From assembly GCA_963665115.1 (NCBI GenBank), contig OY762007.1, positions 1,184,001 through 1,248,000 of the forward strand: a DNA stretch of 64,000 nt. The letters are read 5' to 3'. How positions within the stretch are numbered: position 1 is the first letter of the stretch; each line of letters starts with the position of its first letter. Positions 22,960 through 64,000 of the stretch are shown here, piece by piece. The notes under the pieces were generated by a model. The model saw nothing but the letters and a program-made list of their open reading frames with translations. It was not told the DNA's origin and ran no database searches. Position numbers and translations under genes: made by a program. The stretch is from an uncultured Rivularia sp. Lineage in GTDB: Bacteria; Cyanobacteriota; Cyanobacteriia; Cyanobacteriales; Nostocaceae.

Positions 22960-23136
22960 ATTTCCGAGCAGGTAAACCTTTCGAGTATAAAATTATATTT
23001 TATTTTGACATCTTTGGGGGCTACTTAAATATTAAACAATTCTGTTTTTATAGTACGACTCCTTGAGCAAATATAGAATCTGTACCAAAAAAATGCTACC
23101 CAAATTACTAGCTGAATCTACTTGTTACTCATGCTT

Positions 23137-24384
23137 CTAAGCAAGCCCCTCAATGACAAAATTCTCTTTGATTTTAATATCCTTGCAAGCTACTTGAATA
23201 CTAAAATATTTACCGAGGGGTAGTTTGAATCGTTTCAATTGAATGTAATTATCGTAACTTCTAGATTCGACAGATTGTAAAGCATTTCCAGATTCGGAAA
23301 GCAAAGTTAATTGCACGTTGTCTGGTAAATAACTTTCCCCGGAAGCTGGATAAAGCTGCACTCGGATACCGACTTTGTTATCAACTTGCGGTGATAAACC
23401 AATTAATAAAGCCACTGATTTACTCTCTAACTGCATCCCCAAATCAATAAGTTTGGCTCCTTTAACACAAACTTCATTTAAAACCGAATCGCTTCTGAAT
23501 TGAAAAGTTCTCGTATCAGTTAAGCCGAATAAATCATCAACAGAACGCCAACCTTCATGAAAAATATTTTCAAACCACGAACTCAAATTATGTACGACTT
23601 TTTGGCTGTTTTCCATAAAATTAACTTGTGAATTTTTTATCCTCTGGTTGTACAAAATAGTACGATATTTTTGCGCCGATAAGATTGCTCCCCATTCTGA
23701 AAATTTCATATATAAGCGAGGTGAATAAACAGTCGGCTTGCTTAATTTTTCTATAATTTGCTTTGCTTGAAACTCCGATAAACTTGGCAAAGTTTGCACT
23801 TGTGGTTGTTCGAGAGTACAAAGCTCCTGGGCAACCCACATAATATCAATATCCGCAATCAAATCGCGGTTGCTTACACAATAAGTTCTATCCATTGAAT
23901 CATATTGTGCTTTTTCACGAATTTGCTGATGGCTAATAAAACCCCAAATTCTTAACCAACCCTCCTCAACATTTAACTGTACCTTCATATAATAATTAGC
24001 AGCCCAATTAGGGATATCAACCCATTCTTGGGGAATGCGAAATTCAGTTGGATAGCTTTGTTCATTTGGAACTAAAACCAATCGAGAACGATCGAAGTTT
24101 AAATCAATTCCATTCACAAATTCACATTGCCGAAATGAATCTTCAGATAGCTCGGGTATCTGCAATTTTTCTAGTAAATCCGGTTCATTCTTTAACAATT
24201 TGACAAAAGTATTTAAACACAAGCGATTTACAAAAACCCTATTTACTTCGGCATCATTTCGATAGTTCTCTTTTACAGTTTGTTGCCATGCTATTTCTCG
24301 TTCTTTAGCTGAAAAATCTACCCATAAATATTCGTGGTAAATTTCTCTCAAATCATCAAATTGCAACATATGACTATTAATCAT
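23137..24384 (-). CDS. DUF1822 family protein
   Basis: VNGI, FRIPQEWVDIPNWAANYY, NLSSWFENIFHEGW, GAKLIDLG, YLPDNVQL motifs. Confidence 0.85.
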   Translation of the reverse strand: MINSHMLQFDDLREIYHEYLWVDFSAKEREIAWQQTVKENYRNDAEVNRVFVNRLCLNTFVKLLKNEPDLLEKLQIPELSEDSFRQCEFVNGIDLNFDRSRLVLVPNEQSYPTEFRIPQEWVDIPNWAANYYMKVQLNVEEGWLRIWGFISHQQIREKAQYDSMDRTYCVSNRDLIADIDIMWVAQELCTLEQPQVQTLPSLSEFQAKQIIEKLSKPTVYSPRLYMKFSEWGAILSAQKYRTILYNQRIKNSQVNFMENSQKVVHNLSSWFENIFHEGWRSVDDLFGLTDTRTFQFRSDSVLNEVCVKGAKLIDLGMQLESKSVALLIGLSPQVDNKVGIRVQLYPASGESYLPDNVQLTLLSESGNALQSVESRSYDNYIQLKRFKLPLGKYFSIQVACKDIKIKENFVIEGLA

Positions 24385-24393
24385 TTTAAAAAA

Positions 24394-25923
24394 TTATCCT
24401 TGTTTTAGCTGTATCCATCGATCTACCACATCAACTATTTTGGCATTTACCACAGATAGCGAATCTCTTTGTAAACACATAGTCCTTTCCACGTACTGTT
24501 TGAAACACTCTAAGAATCTAAGCTTTACCGCTGCTGATTCATTTAATTCTTTTAAATCATTATTATAATCTTTAACAATGAAGCTGTTTGGAGATTTAAT
24601 ACTAATAAATATACTTGTTTGTTCTTCATAACTAAACTGTTTAATAATTTCATCCAATATAGAAAAAATCAGTTGCTGGCAATAAAGCTGTAAGCATTTG
24701 TCCAAAGCAGATTTTATTCTTTCAATATCTTTTTCATTATTAAGATAGATATCTGGATTCGTTTTATTCCATTCCGAGGCAAACTCCTTTATAATAGTTC
24801 TACTATATTTTTTTAACTGACGGGCTACTTGATACTGCTTTTGTAAATCAGAATATTTATATTTAAGAAGATTGGCTATTTCAGTTTGAGTTAAATTTAA
24901 GCCCTGCCATAATTTGAAAATCATTTGACATAATTCTGGCATACTCGTAAATAATTTATCAAAAATCGTTTCTAGGTTTTGAAATTCTTCCTGCTGTATT
25001 AATACATCCCATCTAGAAGGTGCGGGATTTGATAAACCGTAATAATCTTCCTCAAAATATAAATATTCCTTGTTACGGTAATTTTTAGCTGCTTTTATAC
25101 AAGTTGAAAGCATTTCTAAAATTGCAATCTTTGTTGCAGGTGGAGAATTAATATTAAATTGATTGCATCGTTGATTATAATAACTAGCAATTTCCGTCAA
25201 TTCATCATGTGAAGGTTTTTGCGCCGAACCCGAACGGCTAGGTGTCATGTGAAAAAGTTCATTAAAACATTGCCAAGCTAAGCGATGTGAAACAACTTGT
25301 TGAGCCGGAATTTGCGCGACTAAAGCATCATTTAATTCTCCAGCACTTAAATCTTTCAATAAACCGTAACTTGAAAATCTTGTTCTTCTCGCTTCCAAAT
25401 CTTGTCGATAGATTTGGTTGCGAATAAATCTTTTAAAAGCAGTTATCGCGTATGCTTCTATATTTATTTGATTACGCTCAAAATTAAAATTATTAAAAAA
25501 CTTGCGTGGTGAATTTGCGGCGATATTTGCTATTTGAAAAAATTCTTCTAAAGAATATTTATGTTTGATATACTTAAATTCATGATGTATATCTTTTGCT
25601 GCTTTAAAACAGGCTTCTTGCAAATAAGCAGAAAAATGTTTTTTAGCCGTAGAGCAACAGCAATCTGGATTAAATTGACGTAAACTTTGATTATTCGACT
25701 GCTCTTGGATAAGTAAAGCTTTTAAAAAATATTGTGCCCAAAAACTTTCCTTAGCATCTGGATCTGCTTCTACTTTTGATCTCATATTTTTTTCAAGCGG
25801 TGCATCGTGCTTCCAACTCAATTGAATTTGAGAATTGTTGGCTGTAAAACAGATAAAGCTAGAAAACTTATCAACTAAATTCTTACGTTTTTTTACAAGC
25901 ATTGATTTTTCCAAAAACATCAA
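24394..25923 (-). CDS. Sigma-70-like / HTH transcriptional regulator
   Basis: Helical protein with region-4-like LNLTQTEIANLL...QYQVARQL; 9 bp upstream of DUF1822. Confidence 0.65.
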   Translation of the reverse strand: MMFLEKSMLVKKRKNLVDKFSSFICFTANNSQIQLSWKHDAPLEKNMRSKVEADPDAKESFWAQYFLKALLIQEQSNNQSLRQFNPDCCCSTAKKHFSAYLQEACFKAAKDIHHEFKYIKHKYSLEEFFQIANIAANSPRKFFNNFNFERNQINIEAYAITAFKRFIRNQIYRQDLEARRTRFSSYGLLKDLSAGELNDALVAQIPAQQVVSHRLAWQCFNELFHMTPSRSGSAQKPSHDELTEIASYYNQRCNQFNINSPPATKIAILEMLSTCIKAAKNYRNKEYLYFEEDYYGLSNPAPSRWDVLIQQEEFQNLETIFDKLFTSMPELCQMIFKLWQGLNLTQTEIANLLKYKYSDLQKQYQVARQLKKYSRTIIKEFASEWNKTNPDIYLNNEKDIERIKSALDKCLQLYCQQLIFSILDEIIKQFSYEEQTSIFISIKSPNSFIVKDYNNDLKELNESAAVKLRFLECFKQYVERTMCLQRDSLSVVNAKIVDVVDRWIQLKQG

Positions 25924-48648: not shown

Positions 48649-49170
48649 TTACCAATCCGAATTCCCATCATTAATAAAGTAAGGAGTCCCCGGTAAAGCA
48701 AGAGCTTGAATGATTTGGTCAAAATAAGGAGTAACCAAAGCTGCATCCTGCGAGCCAAGAGTTACTTCAGCTTGTTCTTTGATGCAGTTTAATGCTTCTA
48801 CCCAATTTGCTAAGGGTATACCCAAAGATTGGTACATTTCTTTCATACCGACGATACCAATTTCTGTTAATGGCTGGTCGTTTCCTGCTAAAACACAGTA
48901 AGCAACTAACCGGATATACCAACCTTGGTCGCGCTGACATGAAGATGTCTTTCGCATATTCCCGCTATTGCTGGGGGTGTTAGGACACCGCTTCCAGAAT
49001 TTATCGCTGGAGATTTCGACTAACCGTCTTTCATTCTTCGCTAAAGTTGTAGCAACCCGAATCCGCTGCGTCCCCGTATGACAAAAGTTTTTAATCATCC
49101 GGATTTCTCCGGGGGTAGGATAACGCAGTTCTTCGTCGGCATTAAGAATCACTTGCTTGACTATACTCAT
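48649..49170 (-). CDS. apcD3: Far-red allophycocyanin alpha-type subunit
   Basis: FWKRCPNTPSNSG...CQRDQGWY; C-terminal extension; lies after apcE2. Confidence 0.85.
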   Translation of the reverse strand: MSIVKQVILNADEELRYPTPGEIRMIKNFCHTGTQRIRVATTLAKNERRLVEISSDKFWKRCPNTPSNSGNMRKTSSCQRDQGWYIRLVAYCVLAGNDQPLTEIGIVGMKEMYQSLGIPLANWVEALNCIKEQAEVTLGSQDAALVTPYFDQIIQALALPGTPYFINDGNSDW

Positions 49171-51476
49171 AATTCTCCTCTGTTTGAGTTTCAGTCACTG
49201 GTTCTTGTAACTGCGTCACTGTTTCTACAATTGGCTCTGCTGAATTTGAGTTGTTCAATTCATCTTCAGAGTTTTGCTGTTGTGTATGAGCAAGTTCTGA
49301 CCAGAAAAGCTGTTTTTGCACGTTGCGCTGTTTGGGAATAAACGCATCCAGTTCGGATGGTGATGAAATTGAGGATTTAGCTCTTAAATTTACACCTTCT
49401 ACCGATGCAGAACGGCGCATGGCGAAACCTCTGGGTGTAATATAACGCTCATAAGGAACCGTATTTTCTCCGAAAGCTTCTATGTATTCGGAACTATCAA
49501 TTATTTCGTCAATCAGAGCGTAAAATCCCTTAGTGGCGGAAATATCGTAGTAGCGATTCATTTCTTCCCGTCCATAAGTCGGACGACCTAACAAACGCCG
49601 ATGAATGTATTCAATGGCTTTAGTAATGTAGAGTTTTTCCCAATACATCCTGCGAAACCAATTAGATTTCCCTAATTGACGGATAAACTCCCGCATCGTA
49701 ATTTCGCCACCTTTGAGTTTGATTTCTGGGGTTGTTAAACGTTGACCTTGTAAAAGCTCGCGTCCAAATACCTGTCGATAAGCTCCGTTAATAACTGCTT
49801 CGGGAGAGTGTTTCGCTAAACTTATACTAAGTTCTTGTTGCTTTTTCCCATTCTTCTTTCCATTTGTGCTTTGACCATTTTGCACAGATGTATCAAATTT
49901 CTCTACATGGTCTAGCTTGATGACACCAACCGCAGAACCGCGAACTTGATAATCGCTAGCTTCAGCATGAATCAAAATCCGGCGAGTATCTTTGTTGAAA
50001 AATGCAGGTTCGGGATGAGGATTGCGGGTGTCTTGAGGAAAAACTGCACCAAACTGAATTTCTAATGGGGTCGTTTCCGCAACCGTAAGGATGTTGATTG
50101 GGTAGAGGTTTTTCATATTTACCAAACAGGGTTACAAACTGAGGAACTTTGCGAACGGGAGCGCTATATTTGAATAAATCAATTTGCGGACCCCAGTTGC
50201 GACATTCCTGAGCTTCTTGACCCAAACCGCGCAAATACGGTACTGTTTCCTCACCAAAGTAATCGGAGTATTCCTGAGAATCCACTAAAGTATCTACTAA
50301 TTTAGGTAAACCACCTTTAGTAATAACCGCAAAATATTCTTGGAACTCCGATAAAGAACTCAAACCGCGACCTAGAAAGTGACGCATCGCCAATTCTATA
50401 ACGCGAGCGATTGAATAAGGCTCATAAAAAAGCGTCAGGTAGAGCCGAGATTTACCCAACCTGCGGACAAACTCCTTCATCGAGATTTGTCCACCCTTGA
50501 GCTTCGATTCTATTTCAGTACCGGGAAAAGCATATATTGCAGTAATATCGCGTTCAAAAACTTGACGATAAGCAGCTTTAATTGCGTCTCGCTTTTCTGT
50601 TTCCGATAGCACCGACTTCATCATGAATTTTGGTCGATTTTCGGCCGCGATCGCATAACTCTGAGGTAGCACCAAACCCTGTTGCTCGTTGGAAACCCCA
50701 ATTCTCAGTCTGTCTGAGGGCTTTTCTTCTAAATACTCAGAAATCAATATATCAAAATAATACTTGACAATATTGCTTGCTTCAGTATTATCTTGCAAAA
50801 AGCTCGCCGATTGTCTTCGCATTTCTTTGAGCGCAACAACGGTAGCTTCCGTGACATCTTCTGGAATAACTCCGCGCAATCCTCGGACGTTAACTGTGAG
50901 AATACTAGCATCACCAGCAACAACTGCATAAGTAATATAGCGCAAGAACCAGGATAAGTCCCGCATAGACCTTTTCATTCTTTTTGGTCCGTAGCGAGAG
51001 ATATTGATGAAACGAAAACCTCCCGGAAGTGGATCTCTATCGCTATAAAGGGTTCGGATTTGTTGCCACCAAGCTTTAAAAGGAGCAGAAATCTTAGGAG
51101 CTTGTATTGATTCGAGACGCTCCTTAACAGCAACAACGCGATTTCTTCTTGCCGCAGTCAGATAATCTTCACCAACAAAATATCCCGAACCCGGTAATCC
51201 TAGCAGTTCTTTGGGCTTTTCCAGATAATCCATTGGCGAACCACCAACGAAAATACGGTTTGCTCCAGCAGAGACAATTTCCGAGGCCTTATTAGTTAAA
51301 GTTATTGCAATTTCTAACCGCAACTCACCAGAACTAAAAAACGATCCTAGTTGTTGAAGTTCAGTGTTTCTCAAATAACGGTCTTGTTGTTCCGTCTGAG
51401 AAATAACTGAGGTAGGTAAACTTTGATATTGTTGTGGACGGATAACTGGACTACCACCACTTACTTTTACACTCAT
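49142..51476 (-). CDS. apcE2: Far-red core-membrane linker (~777 aa, two REP domains), +1 frameshift at 50067-50070
   Basis: VIPEDV motif in place of the Cys-containing ENACS; two AYRQVF linker repeats. The corrected frame reads GNDPLEIQFGA. Confidence 0.9.
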
Positions 51477-51520
51477 ATATTTTATCCTTTGTTACTTATT
51501 CCTCAATGCCTAATGCCCAT

Positions 51521-52000
51521 TCAAGGCATTAATGATTGAATCAAATAATCAAAATAAGGTGCGACTTCAGTAGCATCTTTTGAGGAAAAAAGCTCTAAAG
51601 AAACTTCTTTGAGACAGCGAATAGCTTCCACTAAATTCGGTAGGGGAATTTCCAAAGATTCATACATCTCCTTCACCCCGACAGTGCCAATTTCTGCGAG
51701 AGGTTCTATATCTCCCACCACAAGGGAATAGGTAATTAGACGAACATACCAACCTTGGTCGCGCAAACATGAAGCCCGATAGGTTCTGTTACCACTATTA
51801 CTGGGTGTATCGGGACACCGTTCCCAAAACCTCAAACTAGCTTTTTGGACAATTTTTTGTTCGTTTTCCGCGAGAACTGTCGCCAGCGAGAGCCGAGAAA
51901 CTCCACCTTGATAAAAGTCCCCGATCGTAATTAATTCTCCCGCATTTAGATAACGGGCTTCTCTATCGGCTTGAGCAATTGTTTTTGTAATGATGCTCAT
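51521..52000 (-). CDS. apcD2: Far-red allophycocyanin alpha-type subunit
   Basis: FWERCPDTPSNSG, CLRDQGWY; position between apcB2 and apcE2. Confidence 0.85.
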   Translation of the reverse strand: MSIITKTIAQADREARYLNAGELITIGDFYQGGVSRLSLATVLAENEQKIVQKASLRFWERCPDTPSNSGNRTYRASCLRDQGWYVRLITYSLVVGDIEPLAEIGTVGVKEMYESLEIPLPNLVEAIRCLKEVSLELFSSKDATEVAPYFDYLIQSLMP

Positions 52001-52172
52001 AAAGATCCTGTTTTTGATTGTTAATTAGAACCTCTCTCTTGCAAGGAGAGAGGCTGTTATCTTACTCCTCTTCCCGATGCTCGGAAGGGGCTAGGGGTTA
52101 GCTCTGTATTGGTATTAACCGTGAACTATTAACTGTTACAAACCAATATTTATCAATGAATTAAAACACCTT

Positions 52173-52658
52173 TCAACTTAAACCAGCAGCAATGTGATCA
52201 AAGTAAACACCCATTTCCCTACCTGATTCGTTACCGAGCATACTAGTAACAACTTCCTTCATGGCTTGTACTGCTCGGATAGTTCCACCAATGGGAACTC
52301 CCAATGAATTATAAGTTTCTCTTAAACCATTCAAAATACGCTCATCTAAAATTGAAGCGTCACCAGCTAACATCGCATAAGTTGCATAGCGGAGAAAATA
52401 ATCCAAGTCGCGCACGCAAGCGGCATAGCGACGACAAGTATACATATTGCCACCAGGAGCGGTAATATCTGTGTAAAGTAAAGACTTGGCAACAGTTTGA
52501 GTGACGATATTTTTGGCATTAGCACTTACAGCAGTAGCAGCTTTTGCTCGCATATCGCCGCTATGAAAGTAAGTTTCTAATCTGTCTAAGAAAGTATTAT
52601 CTAGATATTTGCCTTGAACATCAGAGGAATTAATCAAGGCAGTAATTACATCTTGCAT
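52173..52658 (-). CDS. apcB2: Far-red allophycocyanin beta subunit
   Basis: [37 protein letters not shown]. Confidence 0.9.
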
Positions 52659-52866
52659 GATTCAAAGTTTCCTTAAGCTAAGTTTTTATTTTTTGAGTTA
52701 AAGATTAGAATTCATTCGATTTTGGATTTTGCGGAACATCCCCAAGCAGAGGAACTGGCGTTGGGGTGTAGATTCTCTTCCGCCAAAACTAAGCATCGAC
52801 AGATTTTAGATTTTGGATTGATATTGATGTATATTACAATCCTAAAAAACCTGAATCCCGCCATTG

Positions 52867-53343
52867 TTAAGAAAGTGCCTGAATGATGTAGTCGAAATAG
52901 GGCCCGACTTCAACTGCATCTTCTTCACTCATCATAGATACAGCTTCTTCTTTGACGCAGCGCATAGCTTCAACTAAGTTTCTCAATGGAATCTCTAAAT
53001 TGTTGTACATTTCTTTAATGCCAAGAGTGCCAATTTCTTCTAGAGGCTTTTCACTACCAGCCAAAATAGAATAAGCAATTAAGCGCACATACCAACCCTG
53101 ATCGCGTTGACAAGAAGCTGTCTTACGGTCAATACCGCTATTACTTGGGGTATTCGGACAGCGTTCCCAAAATCTCATGCTGCCATTTTGGACGATTTGT
53201 TGCTCATTTTCTGCCAATGTTTTGGCAATGCGAATTCTCTGATCTCCTGTTTTTAGAAAATCTTGAAATATTCTTAATTCTTTAGGAGCAGGATATCTAG
53301 CTTCACTATCAGCGCTAAGAATCAATTCTGTTACAACACTCAT
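52867..53343 (-). CDS. apcD5: Far-red allophycocyanin alpha-type subunit (ApcD5/ApcA2 position)
   Basis: ADSEARYPAPKE, FWERCPNTPSNSG, CQRDQGWY; first apc gene of the operon. Confidence 0.8.
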   Translation of the reverse strand: MSVVTELILSADSEARYPAPKELRIFQDFLKTGDQRIRIAKTLAENEQQIVQNGSMRFWERCPNTPSNSGIDRKTASCQRDQGWYVRLIAYSILAGSEKPLEEIGTLGIKEMYNNLEIPLRNLVEAMRCVKEEAVSMMSEEDAVEVGPYFDYIIQALS

Positions 53344-53435
53344 TTATTTCTCCTAGTTATTTGTCATCAACGCTCCACGAGGGAAAGTAATAATTGAAAC
53401 CCTCGCTACAAATGGAATAAACAAATTTTTGTCTT

Positions 53436-53495
53436 CCCCATTCCCCATTCCCAATTCCCAATTCCCAATTCCCAATTCCCAATTCCCCGTCCCCA
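53436..53495. repeat. STRR heptamer array (ATTCCCA/C)
   Basis: About 8 tandem heptamers; similar arrays at 33179-33215 and 47414-47497. Confidence 0.85.
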
Positions 53496-53553
53496 ATATT
53501 TATTAGGAGTCATTAGTCAGTAACCTCCGACTAATGACTTTAGGTAATCATCC

Positions 53554-54639
53554 TCAAGCAGCTAATGCTGGAGCTTTCAGCGAAATTACCGGAACCGATT
53601 CACCAGATGCAAGATCCAATGGAAAATTGTGAGCATTCCGTTCGTGCATGACTTCAAAACCAAGATTGGCTCGATTTAATACATCTGCCCAGCTAGGAAG
53701 TACCCGACCTTGAGAATCAAGGATGGAATTATTAAAGTTGAATCCGTTGAGGTTAAATGCCATCGTACTAATACCTATGGCCGTACCCCAAATACAAATT
53801 ACAGGCCAAGCTGCAAGGAAGAAATGTAACGAGCGACTATTATTAAAGCTGGCATACTGGAATATTAACCGACCAAAATAACCGTGCGCTGCAACTATGT
53901 TGTATGTCTCTTGTTCTTGCCCAAATTTATAGCCGTAATTCTGAGATTCAGATTCAGTTGTTTCCCGTACAAGACTCGACGTTACTAAAGAACCGTGCAT
54001 GGCACAGAATAAAGAACCTCCAAGGACTCCAGCCACCCCTATCATATGAAAGGGATTCATTAGGATGTTATGTTCGGCTTGGAACACAAACATAAAATTA
54101 AAGGTGCCGCTGATACCCATTGGTAAACCGTCAGAGAAGCTACCTTGTCCGATGGGGTAAATCAAGAATACAGATGTTGTCGCAGCCAGAGGAGCGCTGT
54201 AAGCAACTGCAATCCAAGGACGCATACCCAAACGGTAAGAAAGTTCCCATTCACGTCCCATGTAGCAACAAAGGGCTGGGATGTAGTGGAACGCAATCAT
54301 CTGGTAAGGTCCACCGTTATACAGCCACTCATCTATAGAAGCTGCTTCCCAAATGGGATAGAAGTGCAGCCCAATAGCATTGGAACTGGGGACGACGGCA
54401 GCAGAAATGATATTGTTGCCATAAAGTAATGAACCTGCTATCGGTTCGCGGATGCCGTCAATATCTACGGGTGGAGCCGCGATAAAGGCAATTATAAAGA
54501 CGCAGGTGGAGACTCCTAATAAAGGAATCATTAGAAAACCAAACCAGCCGATATACAGACGGTTTTCGGTACTAGTAATCCAATCGCAGAACCTATCCCA
54601 TAAGGGAAAGCGGGTAGGTTGTTGTGAAACTATAGTCAT
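53554..54639 (-). CDS. psbA3: Photosystem II D1, far-red form
   Basis: Mn-cluster ligands retained ([21 protein letters not shown]); far-red-type substitutions [21 protein letters not shown]. Confidence 0.92.
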
Positions 54640-54769
54640 AAGCTCGATAGTGCTATGAAGGTTAGTTACTAAAAGATGTGAAAAAAGTTAAATTGCCGTT
54701 TGCGGCTCTAGAATACCTGAAAACTGGCTTATTTCGCTCGACATTAACTGTTAGCTATGAGCTGCAACT

Positions 54770-54881
54770 ACTAGTACCGCTGCGCGGAAGTAAAAAGTCA
54801 AAAGTAAGAAGTAAAAAGTATTATATGATAAGGCTTTCAAACTTTTTAAATGGGTGCTTTATTTACGCCGTACTGTACTAG
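54770..54881. mobile_element. MITE-like element (CTAGTAC...GTACTAG ends) in the psbA3 upstream region
   Basis: Terminal inverted repeat with internal AAAAGT(C/A) heptamers; its right end recurs at ~42107-42143. Confidence 0.6.
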
Positions 54882-55017
54882 GTAGGTTTTTTTGTTAAAG
54901 AACCCCCTCATCGCTATCGCTGCTGTAAAAGCATATGCGATGAGGTGGTAACGGCGAGCTAACAAAGATGCAGTTCTCAGAGCTCTTAAGTCGATAAAAG
55001 TACAATAAAAAATAAAA

Positions 55018-55034
55018 ATGAAGAACTAATGAAG
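55018..55034 (-). promoter_or_regulatory. Candidate winged-helix regulator site: CTTCAT-N5-CTTCAT direct repeat
   Basis: ATGAAG at 55018 and 55029 (11-bp period) in the psbA3/rfpB divergent region. Confidence 0.4.
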
Positions 55035-55398
55035 TATCTTCTTATCTTTACAAAACTTAATAACTGTCTGAAGCACAGATGCGAGAATTTATTTATATTG
55101 AATTTAGAATAAATACTTACTAAATATAAATAAAAGTAAAGAAAATTATTTTTTATTGAAGCTAAGTAACTTTTAGGTAAGAAACTCGTTAATAATTATG
55201 TTGAATAAAAGTGTTTTTGCGGATATTTTTATTTCTAATCTATATAAAGAAATTAGATTTAGATATGGATGTTCGTGCTTGTCAACTGTTAGCATTTATA
55301 TAGAGCAAAAATAATAATTTGTGTGAAAAAAATAGTTCAATTTTTTAGTTAATTAATGTGAAAAAAACTTAGTTTCCAAGTTTAAGAGGTGATTTTAA

Positions 55399-56685
55399 AT
55401 GAGGATTTTAGTAGTTGAGGATGACAAGTGTATTACCAAAGCTTTGGAAAATATTCTTAGCAATCAACACTATGTCGTGGATATTGCCGAGAATGGTTTG
55501 CTTGGCTGGGAGTTTGTGGAGGCTTTCACCTATGACTTAATTTTGTTAGATGTAATTTTACCCGAACTTGATGGCATTGAATTTTGCCAGAAGTTACGAG
55601 AACATAACTATCAAATGCCCGTTTTATTATTAACAGCCCAAAACTCTAGCAATGATAAAGTGTTGGGATTAGATGCTGGAGCGGATGATTATGTTGTTAA
55701 ACCTTTTGAAGTCACTGAATTGTTAGCTCGAATTCGAGTTTTACTGCGTCGGAAAAATACACCAATACAAGCAGTTTTGCAATGGGAGAACCTGCGGCTG
55801 AATCCTGGTAGCACGGAAGTGACTTATAACAGTGATTTACTAAACCTGACTCCCAAGGAGTATCGTTTACTTGAACTTTTTCTTCGTAATAGCAATATTG
55901 TTTTTAGTAGAAGTGAGATTTTAGATCATTTGTGGTCTATGGAAGAAGCACCCAAAGAAGATACAGTTACAGCCCATATTAAAGGTTTACGGCACAAGCT
56001 GACGAGAGCGGGGGCACCGAGCGATTTAATTGAAACTGTTTATGGTTTGGGTTATCGTCTTAAAGAAATTGATCGCGCTAAAGTAAAATCCTCTGAGGAA
56101 AAACCTCGCAAGAAACTAAATAATAAACAAAGTAACAAACAGCAGCAGGCGAAGGAAGCATTGATTAAAACGTGGGAAAAGCTAAAAGCACTAAATATTG
56201 AACGCATCACTATTTTAGAGCAAGCTGTTAGCGCATTGTTAAAGAATAATAAAAGCGAAGAATTAATAGAAAAGGCGCAAAATGTAGCGCACCAATTTGC
56301 TGGAGGGTTAGGCATCTTTGGTTTTACTGAAGGTTCGCATCTAGCCAGAGAAATAGAGCAAATTTTTAAATCGAGAGTTAATTTAGACAGAACTCAAGGA
56401 CTTCATTTGAGAGAATTGGTAAAACTTTTACAGCGGGAAATACAACAGCCTGCGTTTAACAGCGATTGCAAACCCGTACAATGCGATAAATATTCTGTAA
56501 TGCTGGTAATTAATGATGATGTAAAACTAGCGAGGAACATAGTTAAATCTGCTATTGCATCGGGAATACATATAGAATCAGTACAAAATTTATTCGCAGC
56601 AAAAGAAGCATTAAACAAGCCTCAAGTTGATGCAGTATTGGTCAATCCTTCCCTTGATAAGACAACTGAAGAGGTTAAAGGTTAA
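55399..56685 (+). CDS. rfpB: FaRLiP response regulator REC-wHTH-Hpt-(truncated REC)
   Basis: MRILVVEDD, LTPKEY, TVYGLGYRL, Hpt AHQFAGGLG. The last REC breaks off at a heptamer array. Confidence 0.82.
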   Translation: MRILVVEDDKCITKALENILSNQHYVVDIAENGLLGWEFVEAFTYDLILLDVILPELDGIEFCQKLREHNYQMPVLLLTAQNSSNDKVLGLDAGADDYVVKPFEVTELLARIRVLLRRKNTPIQAVLQWENLRLNPGSTEVTYNSDLLNLTPKEYRLLELFLRNSNIVFSRSEILDHLWSMEEAPKEDTVTAHIKGLRHKLTRAGAPSDLIETVYGLGYRLKEIDRAKVKSSEEKPRKKLNNKQSNKQQQAKEALIKTWEKLKALNIERITILEQAVSALLKNNKSEELIEKAQNVAHQFAGGLGIFGFTEGSHLAREIEQIFKSRVNLDRTQGLHLRELVKLLQREIQQPAFNSDCKPVQCDKYSVMLVINDDVKLARNIVKSAIASGIHIESVQNLFAAKEALNKPQVDAVLVNPSLDKTTEEVKG

Positions 56686-56741
56686 AGGTCAAAGGTTAAA
56701 GGTCAAAGGTTAAAGGTCAAAGGTTAAAGGTCAAAGGTTAA
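56672..56741. repeat. Heptamer array AGGT(T/C)AA, ~10 copies
   Basis: Direct reading; supplies the rfpB stop codon. Confidence 0.9.
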
Positions 56742-56796
56742 TAAGGCTTGTTTTTAATCTAAAACAAAAATATCCGTTGTTAAAACCCAAAATAGA

Positions 56797-59362
56797 ATGA
56801 CTCAGTTTAATAACCCACATCCGCAAATATCAAATAATTCCTCTATCAATGATGAAAAGCCAATTGCTTCTGTGGAGGTACTTTTACACCGGATGATGAA
56901 TCGGATTCGGCAATCCCTGGAATTACCTGCAATTCTCACCGGAAACTGTGGCAGAAGTCCGTACTTTCTTGGAGACAGACAGAGTTAAGGTTTATCGTTT
57001 TGATGCAGATGGCAGTGGAGAAGTGGTTGCTGAATCTGTTGTCAAAGAGCGCTTACCATCTCTTTTAGGACAACATTTTCCCGCAGAAGATATTCCACCC
57101 GAAGCACGCGAATTATTTATCAAAGCACGTCAGCGTTCAATTGTGAATTTAGCTACACAACAAATTGGCGTGAGTCCTTTGGATTGTCCGGAAACTGGAG
57201 AGTCTTTAGCACAAGATGATATTCGGTTTCGTCCTGTAGATGAATGTCATATCGAATATCTCACCTCAATGGGGGTACAGTCGTCATTAGTGGTGCCGAT
57301 TTTACATCACGACCAACTATGGGGATTATTGGTATCTCATCACAGTTTGCCACGTCAGGTAACAGAGCGAGAATTGCAGATTGTTCAGCTAGTTGCAGAC
57401 CAATTATCAATTGCGATCGCACAAAGTACTTTACTCGAACAAACCCGTGCCCGAGCAGCACAGGAAACTACAATTAATCGAGTCGCCAAGCTGTTGCATT
57501 CGATGACGGAGATGCAGTTACAGCAAGCATTGGAATTAACTGTATCTGGATTGCAAGGGGCGGGTGGTAGAGTTTACATTTTTCCGCAAAATCTCCAAGA
57601 GGAAGCACAATTGTTTGTTTCTGGAGAGTGGGTTAATAAAGATGAAGAAAAATTTGAGGAACATCCGACTTGGCAAGAGTGGTTGGGAAAGCAAGCAACT
57701 GTTGGGAATGGAATTAAAGCTTGGATAATTCCAGATTTGCATCAAGTTGCGCTGCCAGAATATTTAGAATCGGTTTTTTCAAACAGTAATATTCGCAGCT
57801 TGCTAGTTATCGAACTAAAATCTCGTCAGCAGAGCTTAGGTTATTTGAGTATATTTCGTCATGAAATTGAAATTGAAACTTTGTGGGCAAGAAGAGCCGA
57901 TCGCAATGATTCGCGACAACAGCGTCCAATAATATCTTTTGAAACATGGCGAGAATTAAAGCAAGGTCAAGTACAATCATGGATTGAGGCAGAAATTGAA
58001 CTTGCTTTGGCTTTAGGAAGTCACTTTGCCACAGCAATTCATCAATATGAACTGTATCAGCAAGTATACGCTCTCAATATTGACTTAGAACAAGATATCG
58101 AAGAGCGTAAGCAAGCAGAATTCAAAATATCTGCCTTAAATGCCCAATTAGAACAGCGAGTGCAGGAACGAACAGTAGAATTACGACGAGAAATTAACGA
58201 ACGCGAGCAAGCAAAAGCCTCACTCGAACGCCTTAGTCGGCAAAGCGGGTTAATCTTGAACTCCGCAGGAGAGGGAATTTGTGGTTTAAATGCTCAAGGT
58301 AAACTCACTTTTATCAACCCAGCAGCAGCGAGAATGTTGGGATATCGAGTAGAAGAATTGATTGTTTCAATCGCTAATAAGGATTCAGATTCGTACCCAA
58401 AATACATTCTCTCTGAATTTCCGCATCAGTCTGGAGAAAGATTTATGCACGTTATATTAAACCACTCCCAACCAGACGGAAGTCCTTACCCTTGGGAAGA
58501 AAATCCTATTTATGCCACCTTAAAAACTGGAGCAGTGCAACATATTACTGACGATATATTTTACCGTCGAAATAAAACAAAATTTCCTGTAGAGTATGTT
58601 AGTACACCAATTTTAGAAAAGAGTAAGATTGTAGGTGCTGTTGTCATTTTCAAGGATATTACCGAACGACAAATAATAGAGCGAATGAAAAATGAGTTTG
58701 TCTCAGTTGTCAGTCACGAACTGCGGACACCTTTAACTTCAATTCGCAGTGCTTTAGGTTTACTTTCAAAGGGTTCGTTGAATAATCAACCCGCTAAAAG
58801 TCAGCGGATGATGGAAATTGCCTTTGATAATACCAACCGCTTGGTGCGTTTAATTAATGACATTCTTGATATTGAACGCATCAATTCCGGCAAAGTGACG
58901 ATGGAAAAACAACATTGCAATGCTGGACAATTGACGATCCAAGCAGTAGATGAAATGCGAGCAATGGCTGAGAAAGCAGAAATTAAACTTGCTTTGAAAC
59001 CTGTTGAAATCCAATTATGGGCAGATCCAGATAGAATCGTTCAAACATTAACCAATTTACTCAGTAATGCAATTAAATTTTCGCCAGCAAATAGTACAGT
59101 TTCCCTTAGTGGAAAGCTGCAAGATTCTCAAATATTATTTCAAGTAAAAGATCGAGGTAGAGGAATTCCTGAAGATAAACTAGAAACCATTTTTGACCGC
59201 TTTCAACAAGTTGATGCTTCTAATTCTCGAAATCAAGGAGGTACGGGTTTAGGGTTAGCAATTTGTCGCAGCATTGTACAACAGCATGGTGGTAATATTT
59301 GGGTTGAAAGTACTTTGGATCGTGGTAGTACTTTTTACTTTACGTTACCTATTAGTAATTAG
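56797..59362 (+). CDS. rfpA: Knotless phytochrome histidine kinase GAF-PHY-PAS-HisKA-HATPase (~854 aa), +1 frameshift at 56939-56942
   Basis: EDIP motif, bilin Cys in VDECHIEYL, PIISFETW tongue, SHELRTPL, GGTGLGL. Confidence 0.88.
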
Positions 59363-59386
59363 CGATTATTTATTAGAAAAAAACAA

Positions 59387-59759
59387 ATGAGCAAACGCAT
59401 TTTAATAATTGATGACGATAAAGATATCCGAGAAGCCACTCAAATGTGTCTAGAAATTTTAGGCTCATGGGAAGTATTGAGTGCTGGTTTCAGGTAAAGA
59501 AGGTTTAGTTACAGCAGCAGCCGAGGTACCCGATGCTATTCTTTTAGATGTAATGATGCCTGAGATGGACGGTTTGACAACTTTTGAGAAGCTACAAGAG
59601 AATCCTGTTACTAAAAATATTCCTGTGATTTTACTAACAGCAAAAGCTCAACCTGCCGAAAAGCGTCATTTTACTCAACTTCGTGTAGCGGGGGTAATTA
59701 CTAAGCCTTACGATCCGTTTACTTTGGCTGATGAAATTACACAGGTTTTGAAGCGATAG
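59387..59759 (+). CDS. rfpC: CheY-like response regulator (~123 aa), +1 frameshift at 59488-59490
   Basis: MSKRILIIDDD...SAGSGKEG (after correction)...LLDVMMPEMDG...LTAK...KP. Confidence 0.85.
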
Positions 59760-59857: not shown

Positions 59858-60901
59858 TTACAAGACAAACTCTTCCGTAACCACAGCATCTTGATAAATG
59901 GCTTCCACTTTAAACTGTTTACCAGCAGCTTCGCTAAATGCTAACTGAATAATTTGGTCGGATTCTCTAGCAATCGCCGATTCACTTTCTGGTTCATCAG
60001 TATTATAATTCAGCGTTACTTTCAGTTGCAAACCTTGTGGTAAACAATATTCATTTTGAGAACGAATTTGTGCAAGTACACCTATCTCTTGATTTTCTTC
60101 AAGTCTCATATTAATTGTTAATGCAAAGCGCTGATTATTTAGTAATAATCCAAAGTCAAATAATTTACCCCTTCTAACTGCAAAATCAGATGACTGAGTA
60201 TTTCTTCTGGTTGCACTTGCATAACTAAGATTAGGCATTTGTGGTGTTAAAATATTTTCAATAGATTGCCAACTTTCTTCAAATAATCCACTCCACCATT
60301 GAGAAAGATTAACAAGGGATTGAGTAACTTTGTGAGGAATATTTTCTGCTGATTTAGGTAAAGGAATAGCTTCTATTTCCAGAAAGCGAATATATAAGAA
60401 TAAATTGTTCACTTCACTATCAAAGCTAGAAAGCGGAATTTTACAAATCTCAGAGTTTTGACTTGGAGATAATTCATCATGTCGTATTATTCCATGAATT
60501 GTTAACTGTTCGGCTTCTTCTAAAATTTCAACTAATACATAGAAGTGAGCAGCAAGTTGTGGTGATATGATATTTTCTTGATGAATAGAAACTAAATTGT
60601 CATAAAGACTATCTACAGTAATTAGTTGAACCTTAAATTCACCAACTTGTAAATTAACGTTCTTCTGTTGAGAATCTGCATCGAGTTGCTTAACTTCGAT
60701 ATCTGGGATTTGTTCTTGTAACCATTCTTCAAAACCGAATAAAGCTAGTTGATTTAAATAAACTCTCCATTGATTTTTCTCACCATCAATATTTTGACTA
60801 ATATTGATAGCTTTCTCATAATGTTCTGGTTCTAAACAAGCAATCCTTGGTTTAATTCGTTGGCTAAAATCTTGTTCTGCTTGTAAGGATAATCTAGTCA
60901 T
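59858..60901 (-). CDS. DUF1822 family protein
   Basis: AAHFYVLVE, NLSQWWSGLFEESW, RGKLFDFG, LPQGLQL motifs; homologous to 23137-24384. Confidence 0.82.
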   Translation of the reverse strand: MTRLSLQAEQDFSQRIKPRIACLEPEHYEKAINISQNIDGEKNQWRVYLNQLALFGFEEWLQEQIPDIEVKQLDADSQQKNVNLQVGEFKVQLITVDSLYDNLVSIHQENIISPQLAAHFYVLVEILEEAEQLTIHGIIRHDELSPSQNSEICKIPLSSFDSEVNNLFLYIRFLEIEAIPLPKSAENIPHKVTQSLVNLSQWWSGLFEESWQSIENILTPQMPNLSYASATRRNTQSSDFAVRRGKLFDFGLLLNNQRFALTINMRLEENQEIGVLAQIRSQNEYCLPQGLQLKVTLNYNTDEPESESAIARESDQIIQLAFSEAAGKQFKVEAIYQDAVVTEEFVL

Positions 60902-60924
60902 GGTGTTTTTATATATGATTATTT

Positions 60925-62496
60925 TTATGCTGCGTTTCTTTTCTGATTGATATACTCTCGCAATCTTTGAGCAAATAAGCTATTTTTATAAAGGCTCCTT
61001 GATGCTGTAATTTCTGCATAAGCTTCTTTAAATGCTATTTCATACAAAAAATTTCTTACCTGTTGTGCTATATCTCGTAAATTATTCGGGTTGCAAGATA
61101 CTTCCTCCGTAAAAAATTTGCTAGCTTTTTCTTGAATTTGTTCTATGAAACTCTTCTCGGAAAAAGACTGAACATTTTCAATTAGTTCGCTCAATTGAAA
61201 TATACGTCTGGCTTTTGCCCAATTTGTTTTCCATAATTGTGCAATTTCTTTCAAACTCAAAGGATTATTTGTTTGGTAATAGAGTTGTAATCCTTGGATA
61301 AATTTTGGAGCATAGGCAGAATAATTCTTTTTTTTAGATAAAAATACCACTCGTTGAGGAATGATTGATGAAATTGCGTTAAATAATATTTTATTTGGTA
61401 ATTTATTCAAAAGTTCTCGTAATTCAATCTCTTCTATATATTCGCAGTTAAGATTTTTAATATAAGACGCATTCGGATTAAAATCAGAATTATTATTATC
61501 TTTATCTATAGAACCAGCTTTAGGACTTCCTATCCTGGTAGAATACTCATCTTGACGTAATATTTCTGCAATTTTTTGAAAACTTTGAATCAACTCATGA
61601 ACAGAACTAAGTATAATGTCTTTATCCTGTAATAAATCAAGCATTTCTTCTAACTGTGGGTGTGTTGGTTCGGAACACCTACCCCTTTGATGAAATTTTC
61701 GTCTATCTCTTCTATAAACTGCATGAAAAACTTTTATTAATTGATGTTCCTTATTAGTGAAATGAGTATCGAGCGATTGAGGGACTTCTCTACATAATAA
61801 AGACCAATCGCTAGAAATCCAAATTCCAAGCTCTAATAAAAATATTTGTAAGTTCTTATTTTGTCTAATACATCTGATACACCAATTATCTAAACTTTCA
61901 CTATTCTTGTTACTAGATAAATTTGGATTGTAAGTTCTTAAAATATCGACACTAAAAAAATTTCCTTCTCTAGGTATTGATTGAGTAGAACCATTTTTAT
62001 TAAAAATTAGTTGAGTTTTATCATCGCAGTCCATAACAATGAAGGTACTACCGTCATCGTTGAGAACGTATGATAACAAGTCTGGTAATAATGTATAATT
62101 ATTGGGACTTTTGTTCGCGAGTATTTGACAACCTTTAATAATAGCGTGAGATAAATAGCATCTTAAACAAAGCCCTGCCTCAGCACGTTTTTTACCATCA
62201 AGATTAACATCATGGAATATTTTCCACAGATGTACTTGAACATATTGATTTTCTGCCTTAGATAAATTTGTTTGACTACTTAATTGTGGTAATTCATCTC
62301 TAAAAAACTCTTTTGCTAAAGTTGATTGTTTCTCTCTATAACAAGAAGTCAGTTTACCATCTTTATCAAAAGGATTAGCGATAATGCACATTGTCCAATA
62401 TCTTGATGTATTTGTATCCATATTTTTGTTGTTCATCGGAATTAGTTCATAAGTTCTCATATTGAGATTTGCGATAAAAACGGGATTGGTAAACAA
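60925..62496 (-). CDS. Sigma-like / HTH helical regulator paired with DUF1822 (start uncertain)
   Basis: CLRCYLSH, FHAVYRRDR, LSLKEIAQLW...KARR HTH-like segment; same layout as 24394-25923. Confidence 0.6.
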   Translation of the reverse strand: MFTNPVFIANLNMRTYELIPMNNKNMDTNTSRYWTMCIIANPFDKDGKLTSCYREKQSTLAKEFFRDELPQLSSQTNLSKAENQYVQVHLWKIFHDVNLDGKKRAEAGLCLRCYLSHAIIKGCQILANKSPNNYTLLPDLLSYVLNDDGSTFIVMDCDDKTQLIFNKNGSTQSIPREGNFFSVDILRTYNPNLSSNKNSESLDNWCIRCIRQNKNLQIFLLELGIWISSDWSLLCREVPQSLDTHFTNKEHQLIKVFHAVYRRDRRKFHQRGRCSEPTHPQLEEMLDLLQDKDIILSSVHELIQSFQKIAEILRQDEYSTRIGSPKAGSIDKDNNNSDFNPNASYIKNLNCEYIEEIELRELLNKLPNKILFNAISSIIPQRVVFLSKKKNYSAYAPKFIQGLQLYYQTNNPLSLKEIAQLWKTNWAKARRIFQLSELIENVQSFSEKSFIEQIQEKASKFFTEEVSCNPNNLRDIAQQVRNFLYEIAFKEAYAEITASRSLYKNSLFAQRLREYINQKRNAA

Positions 62497-62733
62497 AATC
62501 TGTCATGCTTTGTCCAGTCGAGCTTACATCTATATATAGATTGGGGATTTTTTACCTATACATTTTTCTTGGAATCTCCTTGTCATCTATCTAATGGTTG
62601 ATTATTTAACAAAAACTTTCACATAACATTAGGTAACATTTTTTACACAAAAAGTAATATTTTTATGGCACATCAAATAACATCATATAGTCAATAAGGA
62701 TACACAGGATATTACAACCATAAGGAACTGATA

Positions 62734-64000
62734 ATGCAGGTACTGGTGAATCTAAGGTTTCATGATGGTGATTTTCAGCATGGATTTGAGAAAACTACCC
62801 TTAGTGGGATTGTAACTGGTAGTCAAAATTCTACAGAACTAGAAACTCGACTACCCCCTGCACCTTTAATCCCTGGTTTGTATCAAAGTTGGCAGGAGAA
62901 ATACTGTGAGTTAGTGGAAACTCGCGTCAGAAAAATTGTACCCAAAGAACTGATAACCACAAGAGGTTTTAGTAAACAACAATCTACTAATTTCTCTTAT
63001 TACGAGTGTCAGCAGAATTGCAATCAATATGCTGAAGATTTGCGTACTCAAATTAATCAATGGCTGGCTGCAATTAAGTCACAATTAGAAACTGATTTTA
63101 AGTTAGATACAAATTCAGAAATTTTATTAACTATCAATACTGAAAATATTACATCCCAATTTACAAAGGATATTTTACATCGTTTACCTTGGCGGGAATG
63201 GGATTATTTTAATCGTTGTTCTGGTTTTGAAATCGCTTTGTGCTTGAGCAAATTTCAGTCAAATTCCACCAAAATTGTTGACGATGGGATATTTAGAAGA
63301 GTTAGGATTACTAGTATATTTGGTGATAGCACAGATATCGATATTGCTGGCGATCGCCAATTAATCGCAAAACTCCAAAAGCGGGGAGCAGAATTAATAA
63401 ATCTTGAGCAACCACAACGTCAAGATTTTATTAAATTATGGGATGAACCTTGCGATATTTTATTTTATAGCGGTCATAGTGAAAGTAGTATTGATGGTAC
63501 TCTTGGTTCGCTACAAATTAGTAGTACGGAAAGTTTAAGTTTACAGGAAATTAGAAATACTTTTCAAGAAGCTATTAGAAAAGGTTTAAAGTTAGCGATA
63601 TTTAATTCCTGCGATGGTTTGGGTTTAGCTAAGCAATTAGCAGATTTACATTTGCCTTATATTATAGTTTGGCGCGAACCCGTACCAGATAAAATAGCTC
63701 AAAAGTTTCTGGAGTATTTTCTCAGTTCTTATGCTGAAGGTAAATCTTTATTTAACTCGGTGCGAGATGCCAGAATTAAGCTGGTTGAATTAACAAATAG
63801 TGCTGAAAAAGAAAATCTTATTCCGGGATTGGAATGGTTGCCGATTATCTGTAAAAATACAACTGATGCTCCTCCGACTTGGGAAGATTTGGGAGGACTT
63901 ACGGGTAAACTTCCTGACTGCCCTTATCAGGGTTTATCCGCATTTAGGGAAGAAGATAAGGAATTCTTTTTTGGTCGGGATGATGTAATTGCAGACTTAG
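62734..64000 (+). CDS. CHAT protease fused to a probable STAND (nSTAND1-like) NTPase; partial, not in the ORF track
   Basis: Manual translation MQVLVNLRF...LPPAP...LPWREW...ILFYSGHS...LAIFNSCDG...CPYQGLSAF..EDKEFFFGR; open to the window end. Confidence 0.85.
   Translation, partial: MQVLVNLRFHDGDFQHGFEKTTLSGIVTGSQNSTELETRLPPAPLIPGLYQSWQEKYCELVETRVRKIVPKELITTRGFSKQQSTNFSYYECQQNCNQYAEDLRTQINQWLAAIKSQLETDFKLDTNSEILLTINTENITSQFTKDILHRLPWREWDYFNRCSGFEIALCLSKFQSNSTKIVDDGIFRRVRITSIFGDSTDIDIAGDRQLIAKLQKRGAELINLEQPQRQDFIKLWDEPCDILFYSGHSESSIDGTLGSLQISSTESLSLQEIRNTFQEAIRKGLKLAIFNSCDGLGLAKQLADLHLPYIIVWREPVPDKIAQKFLEYFLSSYAEGKSLFNSVRDARIKLVELTNSAEKENLIPGLEWLPIICKNTTDAPPTWEDLGGLTGKLPDCPYQGLSAFREEDKEFFFGRDDVIADL

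Follow-up and report, generated by a model that had tools for sequence, protein, structure and literature searches.

In cyanobacteria, EACC2-caspase proteins with CHASE2 or STAND tails are encoded together with an extracytoplasmic function (ECF) σ-factor and a DUF1822 protein (Kaur, Iyer, Burroughs, and Aravind 2021, eLife, PMC8195603). The source data for Figure 2 of that study include cyanobacterial EACC2+CASPASE+nSTAND1+BetaPropeller proteins of 1548–1758 aa, and its text treats DUF1822 as a TPR protein and, in section 9, proposes activation by autopeptidase activity. In Anabaena PCC 7120, the membrane CHAT protease HetF cuts PatU3 at Arg117–Ser118; the proposed role of PatU3 is to sequester HetZ, which is encoded just upstream of PatU3 (Xing et al. 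2022, PNAS, PMC9457339). CRISPR-linked TPR-CHAT (Csx29)–Csx30–CASP-σ and CalpL–CalpT–CalpS modules have also been described, in which an active protease cuts a σ-binding protein and the σ-factor is released (bioRxiv 10.1101/2023.06.23.546230). The present study concerns a locus at the end of a 64,000-nucleotide stretch of DNA from an uncultured Rivularia sp. (the window, G000:C1:1184001–1248000), which was extended from there into the same genome (8.7 Mb) as locus L001. Its set of genes, encoding CHAT–nSTAND1–WD40, DUF1822, and σ-like proteins, matches the published catalogue. We place this copy in the EACC2-caspase/DUF1822/σ system, and suggest that it likely functions as a protease-gated transcription switch with a STAND–WD40 receptor, a reading to which we assign a probability of roughly two in three. 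The features described are as follows (window positions).

59858–60901, minus strand: DUF1822 protein, 347 aa (Pfam PF08852, E 2.9e-46)
60203–60208, minus strand: candidate CHAT cut site, Arg232–Arg233, in a disordered linker (proposed from conservation of the Arg column and by analogy with HetF/PatU3)
60925–62496, minus strand: diverged σ70/ECF-like regulator, 523 aa from a TTG codon (HHalign to a class with Sigma70_r2/r4 hits; weak Foldseek matches)
62530–62565, minus strand: bipartite promoter-like motif, AAATGTATAGGT-N15-TATATA, pointing towards the σ/DUF1822 operon (footprint, genome scan, held-out test)
62734–63915, plus strand: EACC2-like N-terminal region and CHAT protease domain (Pfam CHAT; His–Cys dyad; 37% identity to 20596–22959)
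63922–64000, plus strand: start of an nSTAND1 NTPase, the gene continuing to G000:C1:1252803
20596–25923, minus strand: paralogous triad, CHAT–CHASE2 (20596–22959), DUF1822 (23137–24384), and ECF-like σ (24394–25923)

A preliminary description of the window had reported a regulator–DUF1822 pair divergent from a CHAT gene, and open reading frames (ORFs) are present where it placed them. The ORF that begins at 62734 leaves the window; the part within it matches Pfam CHAT (E 2.9e-7) and, at its end, nSTAND1 over the first 26 positions of the profile. Its catalytic pair, His248 (63475–63477) and Cys293 (63610–63612), corresponds to a dyad found in 113 of 113 family rows. The same description had assigned this CHAT to the subfamily of 20596–22959; all of the motifs that it quoted occur in the translation, and the identity between the two proteins extends over 399 columns (E 3e-68). 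At the N terminus, ~200 aa can be aligned to the CHAT–CHASE2 paralog and across the family, a comparison made among family members. Extension of the contig, which had been recommended in order to obtain the full set of domains, bears out the proposed nSTAND1 start: the P-loop GASGSGKS lies at residue 436, ~40 bp beyond the end of the window, and is followed, after a frameshift considered below, by Walker B and the rest of nSTAND1 (E 4e-63), a probable transmembrane (TM) helix, ~16 WD40 repeats, and a tail of 55-aa repeats. If read in frame, the receptor would comprise ~2,020 aa.

The architecture and length of this receptor match the rows listed by Kaur et al. (PMC8195603). As in their system, a caspase-like domain, here a CHAT domain with its dyad and probably preceded by the same constant N-terminal module, is joined to a variable C terminus and adjoined by DUF1822 and σ genes, the ECF-like σ neighbor being assigned here by transitive homology. 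The variable sensor is nSTAND1–WD40 at this locus and CHASE2, a periplasmic binding domain, or nSTAND1 in the paralogs, and in one ortholog (L038) the CHAT is 91% identical and the repeats are pentapeptides. The idea of a modular protease with swappable sensors, put forward in the preliminary description, thus agrees with what is found, and is already in print (PMC8195603); the gene set has been catalogued, and its existence will not surprise a specialist. In contrast to the treatment of DUF1822 in that paper, the protein is modeled here as a nuclease-like fold, a linker, and an Ig-like domain, and is likely both a substrate and an anti-σ factor. The sections and tables of PMC8195603 considered here contain no cut site, promoter, regulon, or clade pairing. 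The present work adds to the catalogue a candidate for the substrate and for its cut site, a binding surface predicted from the modeled complex, and a promoter checked on held-out loci, together with a regulon of two sites in this genome and naturally occurring alleles both in frame and frameshifted. Our literature searches, whose coverage excluded most subscription journals, found no experimental studies of this triad.

In the switch that we propose, WD40 propellers outside the cytoplasm would bind a ligand and bring about NTPase-dependent oligomerization, by which a probably membrane-spanning STAND–WD40 receptor would switch on the CHAT protease that it carries. CHAT would then cut DUF1822, the predicted anti-σ factor, after linker Arg232/233, and the cut would free the dedicated σ-like factor to transcribe its own operon together with a small local cassette, comprising here an AAA_35 NTPase gene and, in relatives, genes for secreted proteins, glycan hydrolases, and more receptors. 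The response would most likely be defensive or competitive. This would resemble the CRISPR-linked modules of bioRxiv 10.1101/2023.06.23.546230 in the protease-dependent release of a σ-factor; those modules, however, respond to CRISPR effectors or to cyclic oligoadenylate, and not to a STAND–WD40 receptor. If this is true, then the HetF–PatU3 logic extends to a large receptor family, and STAND NTPases serve transmembrane signaling with a transcriptional output. Tentatively, the scheme may be taken further. The locus might encode a transmembrane immune receptor in which a fast-diversifying, swappable, extracytoplasmic WD40 sensor acts through STAND on a caspase-like cut of a nuclease-derived anti-σ factor, leading to the production of private, secreted, antagonistic enzymes and to no cell death; each paralogous triad might form an insulated channel, having a protease–substrate code and a promoter to itself, and frameshifts that arise and revert at an inserted repeat might provide on/off alleles in the population.

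The locus had been described as a “second copy,” a count that does not survive in the genome at large: there are 12 DUF1822 loci, each downstream of a σ-like gene, and their partners include CHAT–CHASE2, CHAT with a periplasmic binding domain, a second CHAT–nSTAND1–WD40, TPR-CHAT, and a C14 caspase. Complete genomes of filamentous cyanobacteria contain 6–19 DUF1822 matches each. We compared loci from the Rivularia genome, 80 loci retrieved with the regulator alignment, and 80 regions of complete genomes (L015–L034 and two duplicates being excluded), a sample enriched by design for the DUF1822 clade of this locus. A σ-like gene lies upstream of 154 of the 162 DUF1822 genes, and a CHAT of this type lies within 6 kb of 125. 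When the 113 complete triads were placed in trees, this DUF1822 grouped within a clade of 33 rows (support 99) whose CHAT neighbors form exactly one clade (support 99, 1 change), all carrying nSTAND1 with the exception of one fragment; the pairing was confirmed on a 47-row subset with IQ-TREE. Tree distances of CHAT and DUF1822 are correlated (rank correlation 0.48 overall, 0.76 within the clade), and gene order within the clade varies among divergent, tandem, and convergent arrangements, which argues for something beyond passive linkage. Among paralogs of single genomes the correlation ranges from 0.07 to 0.79, with p<0.05 in five of eight genomes.

Several points count against strict cognate pairing. 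The paralog correlation is not significant in the remaining three genomes, linkage alone can produce such correlations, which do not prove specificity, and 16 of 48 clade loci have no CHAT–nSTAND gene in the flank examined, many of them on short contigs. Moreover, the deep branches of the CHAT and DUF1822 trees are incongruent and STAND tails occur in at least three CHAT groups, from which it follows that partners were re-paired in the past. The joint inheritance of the three genes, which the preliminary description proposed to check by co-phylogeny, therefore holds at the level of the clade and fails at the deep branches. The notion of a “constant output” in that description is not borne out: the regulators of the two triads in the window have no BLAST similarity (best E 1.4), their DUF1822 proteins are 23% identical, and none of the strong sites ahead of the first triad (20596–25923), which belongs to the same system but to another clade, is the motif found here.

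Variant arrangements were seen elsewhere in the sample. At L006:6053–11407 (G000:C1:1169053–1174407), the divergent neighbor of a DUF1822/σ pair is a Peptidase_C14 caspase in place of CHAT, a layout also found in L116, L123, L143, L155, L167, and L180; the σ gene of L006 is split in the assembly. In L036, L038, L039, L040, and L077, several CHAT receptors, with nSTAND1–WD40, nSTAND1–pentapeptide, or pentapeptide–CHAT architectures, are grouped around one σ/DUF1822 pair, which suggests that many sensors feed into one switch.

NLR-like and Avs STAND proteins, like the fungal HET-type WD40 NLRs, combine an effector–STAND–repeat layout with a fast-diversifying repeat sensor. This layout, with Walker A and B, is present in the in-frame allele of the receptor and in its orthologs, so that the preliminary description of the protein as NLR-like is sound as to layout; its further suggestion of an intracellular location is doubtful. 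Of 49 STAND-repeat rows, among them some duplicates and some rows outside the clade, 45 have after nSTAND1 a hydrophobic helix (Kyte–Doolittle score, KD, of at least 1.6) with Lys or Arg on its N-terminal side. Under the positive-inside rule, such a helix would set the repeats outside the cytoplasm, and the sensor is probably extracytoplasmic. Everything past the helix diverges fast: relative to the two closest relatives, identity is 86–90% in CHAT, 74–80% in the N-terminal part of STAND, and 89–91% in its C-terminal half, compared with 45–49% in WD40. Within the receptor, the WD40 units are 72–95% alike at the DNA level.

A cytoplasmic NLR- or Avs-like sensor, in which the hydrophobic segment is no anchor, the WD40 repeats sense phage or intracellular proteins, and CHAT leads to σ release or cell death, would also account for this layout and for the fast-diverging, internally alike repeats. 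It would fit the patchy presence of close orthologs (six of 24 same-genus genomes) and the helix of this particular copy, which is weak (KD 1.24, compared with 1.87–1.93 in the closest orthologs) and speaks against an extracytoplasmic sensor. We nevertheless consider it doubtful, given the hydrophobic helix with its preceding Lys or Arg in nearly all STAND-repeat rows and the use of periplasmic CHASE2 or binding-protein domains by sister receptors. PADLOC returned no system model for the locus, only a WD40 match to an unrelated one, and tables of PMC8195603 label related proteins nSTAND1+TM+BetaPropeller, these not being among the EACC2 rows checked. The proposed protease-gated switch differs from Avs and NLR-like proteins in its probable membrane helix before the repeats and in a predicted output that is transcriptional rather than direct killing.

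The regulator, initially described as a helix-turn-helix (HTH) protein, is better read as a diverged σ-factor. Its class aligns with a class bearing Sigma70_r2/r4 (and TIGR02937) hits (HHalign 98.5%, E 1.7e-15, 299 columns), and by this transitive homology it is likely an ECF-like σ-factor. In a Foldseek search with the regulator model (predicted local distance difference test, pLDDT, 86), the top 21 rows are all chains of RNA polymerase–σ complexes. Against this assignment stand its indirectness, the absence of any Pfam or NCBIfam match to the regulator, and the weakness of all of these Foldseek rows (E ≥ 0.039); neither the regulator nor the DUF1822 model has a Foldseek match at E ≤ 0.001, and the best matches of PDB sequence searches with the two alignments are not under E 0.01. 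The σ genes were compared by class labels rather than in a joint tree because the short-σ class could not be aligned to the other σ classes (HHalign 4–5%). The start codon of the regulator is likelier to be ATG at 62436 or 62421 than TTG, orthologs starting near MDTNTSRYW.

The DUF1822 model (pLDDT 80) consists of two domains joined by a disordered linker (residues 222–237). Residues ~20–180 adopt a PD-(D/E)xK-like fold, for which the top five structure matches are all PD-(D/E)xK nucleases (Z 7.2–8.3; the best being I-Ssp6803I at 8.3, close to the level that may reflect shared arrangement alone, and Hjc at 7.9), and residues 240–347 form an Ig-like β-sandwich. A TPR protein was rejected, the model containing no TPR array; a helical linker insert in some DUF1822 paralogs may account for the TPR label. 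An active nuclease was likewise rejected, since the acidic/Lys motif is not conserved in the alignment, judged by strand register only. In complex prediction, DUF1822 and the regulator score 0.79, compared with 0.00 for the best of three controls, with contact agreement between runs of at least 73% and partner pLDDT of at least 75; among solved complexes 116 of 157 attain the mark used, as do 2 of 215 mismatches, numbers that apply only roughly here. The confident interface comprises DUF1822 residues 17–179, all N-terminal to the linker Arg, and the N-domain is thus predicted to bind the regulator. The Arg232 column contains Arg in 66% and a gap in 27% of the 162 DUF1822 rows, and a linker Arg, usually preceded by hydrophobic residues and most commonly followed by Ser, Asn, or Gly, is present in 156 of 161 proteins compared with ~60% by chance, a crude window test that tempers the case. 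By analogy with PatU3, we infer that CHAT may cut after Arg232 or Arg233. Long helical linker inserts were observed in the DUF1822 proteins of L012, L119, L132, L133, L145, L158, L173, and L184, which mostly adjoin CHAT–periplasmic-binding-protein receptors; several of them have no usual linker Arg.

The footprint of eight orthologous intergenic regions yielded the pattern AA(G/C)TGTATAGGT-N15/16-TAT(A/T)xA. The strict form matches 40 sites, spread over 26 of the 48 clade loci, and a single site in 119 other loci. This pattern was fixed after some of the test loci had been seen, and hence a matrix was trained on seven loci only and applied to the 40 held out, where it found 87 sites in 32 loci, 86 of them intergenic and 83 with a spacer of 15 or 16; in 29 of the 40, a site is aimed at the σ gene. 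In a genome scan with a matrix trained without this locus, the two best sites were window 62565 (30.8 bits) and C1:1253062 (27.0 bits), the latter before the AAA_35 gene that lies just past the receptor. The best shuffled score was 23.4, and these two are the only strong sites in the genome, both at this locus. The motif at 62530–62565 is therefore predicted, on sequence grounds, to be an autoregulatory promoter of the σ/DUF1822 operon, and the clade-specific bipartite motif, with its two spacer lengths, is consistent with the −35 and −10 elements of an ECF σ promoter. Two properties detract from this: the matrix is not exclusive, finding 50 sites in 36 of the 119 other loci at the lower threshold (these loci hold three times the sequence, and their site rate per base is fivefold lower), and the motif is partly palindromic (TATAGGT...ACCTATA), which would also fit a dimeric regulator. 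A variant motif, AAGTG(A/C)ATAAGTTG...CTAT, was observed in intergenic regions at G000:C1:247636, 8149844, 2748212, 4734118, and 1037897, in some cases before small secreted-looking proteins and in one before another CHAT gene; it is possibly the promoter of a sister σ clade.

These data bear on a further alternative, which we judge unlikely: that CHAT acts on itself or on some other substrate, DUF1822 binding the regulator but not being the protease target, or that the regulator is a dimeric DNA-binding factor and not a σ-factor. The first form agrees with the autopeptidase proposal in section 9 of PMC8195603. The alternative as a whole is favored by the eight of the 162 DUF1822 genes that have no upstream σ gene, by the 37 that have no CHAT of this type within 6 kb, and by the likeness of the DUF1822 N-domain to DNA-binding nucleases, whose acidic/Lys motif is, however, not conserved. 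The alternative sits poorly with an Arg that is kept in an otherwise variable, disordered linker and is then mostly followed by Ser, Asn, or Gly, as in PatU3. The second form is favored by the dyad symmetry of the motif and opposed by its two spacer lengths and strand-biased flanks. These are typical of σ promoters.

What the switch might control was approached through 31 proteins, mostly encoded downstream of motif sites in relatives. Seventeen have no family, which, with the heterogeneity of the set, counts against the proposed switch; the families matched include α-1,3-glucanase, polysaccharide deacetylase, C39-like peptidase, CAP domain, dynamin-like, HlyD, and pentapeptide proteins, and several of the products appear, by eye, to be secreted. 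This suggests, weakly, a small, variable, local regulon that is closer to conflict than to development.

A developmental switch parallel to HetF–PatU3–HetZ, controlling differentiation or division, is a further and very unlikely reading. The two systems share a protease clan and, if the present locus works as proposed, a logic, namely a CHAT protease, cleavage of an inhibitor after Arg, and a regulator gene immediately upstream of the inhibitor gene (PMC9457339), and the C-terminal 50 columns of PatU show a weak similarity to DUF1822 (HHalign 6.5%, E 0.0056). PatU is not, however, DUF1822 by Pfam, HetZ aligns with the regulator only at the HTH (HHalign 9%), and HetF has periplasmic TPRs and no STAND. 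NF037963 (HetZ) matches three other loci of the genome and not this regulator, and the genome already has its own hetZ–patU pair, which hetF does not adjoin; a protein that we take to be HetF from its architecture (C1:7497039–7499546) scores E 4e-18 against the family profile, well short of true members. Among 61 genomes from the order, 34 have a PatU, in single copies, whereas the present clade is patchy, both strong motif sites lie within the locus, and no developmental gene is found among the predicted targets. The locus would function like HetF–PatU3–HetZ, yet is a separate system. Most of 30 PatU homologs (L195–L224) retain the cut-site Arg, with hydrophobic residues before it and Ser or Gly after it, a pattern similar to that of the DUF1822 linker.

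In the sequenced allele, the receptor gene is split. The CHAT ORF comprises 557 aa, Walker A included, before a stop, and Walker B lies in the +1 frame. The +1 frameshift results from one extra base at L001:6368 (C1:1248368), at the end of a ~88-bp dispersed repeat between Walker A and B (G000:C1:1248283–1248370; L001:6283–6370). This repeat has 23 matches of at least 70 nt in the genome, itself included, 10 of them within long ORFs; it is missing from most orthologs examined and from sequencing run X4, and is in frame in L039, where the ORF is 1735 aa. A literature search found no paper naming such a repeat. Three near-identical runs (X1–X3) hold 97% of the locus. The X1 contig has the same extra base as the assembly. 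X2 and X3 are one base shorter at L001:6368 and thereby back in frame; they are also three bases shorter at L001:10363, within the repeat tail, so that these samples differ from one another at two positions of the locus. Run X4, from a related strain, has little or no coverage over the WD40 region at 90% likeness, a gap to which we attach no weight. Since the orthologs are intact (1787 and 1792 aa in two others) and X2 and X3 are in frame, the in-frame gene is the norm and the assembly carries a frameshifted allele. An assembly error is not favored, as the X1 contig shows the extra base at a depth of 182; X1 is possibly the source sample of the assembly and thus not independent, and contigs conceal minor alleles. 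Because its receptor ends before Walker B, the copy in the sequenced allele is probably off or deregulated. That it is a relic in decay and no longer serves any function, as the frameshift in the assembly and X1 and the split receptor genes at L013 and L040 might imply, is highly improbable, given that X2 and X3 are near-identical over the locus and in frame and that no damage is seen in the σ and DUF1822 genes, the dyad, the Walker motifs, or either promoter site.

At L013:6198–10944 (G000:C1:8062198–8066944), a second CHAT–nSTAND1–WD40 triad, with a short σ-factor, likewise has its receptor gene split, into two overlapping ORFs, as does its counterpart in G007 (L160). Other genes near the present locus also look split into overlapping or adjacent ORFs, at 17836–20137 (a TPS-domain protein), 56797–59362 (the N terminus of a kinase), and L001:14260–15616 (the AAA_35 gene); these may be real alleles or assembly errors. 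Finally, 53554–54639 of the window is presumably a divergent psbA copy and 55399–59759 a phytochrome-like kinase with response regulators, and beyond the locus (L001:16741–19928) lie what we take to be a further divergent psbA-like gene and a psaA-like gene. With these assumed labels, the cluster formed by 49142–59362 and L001:16741–19928 looks like a far-red or low-light acclimation island.

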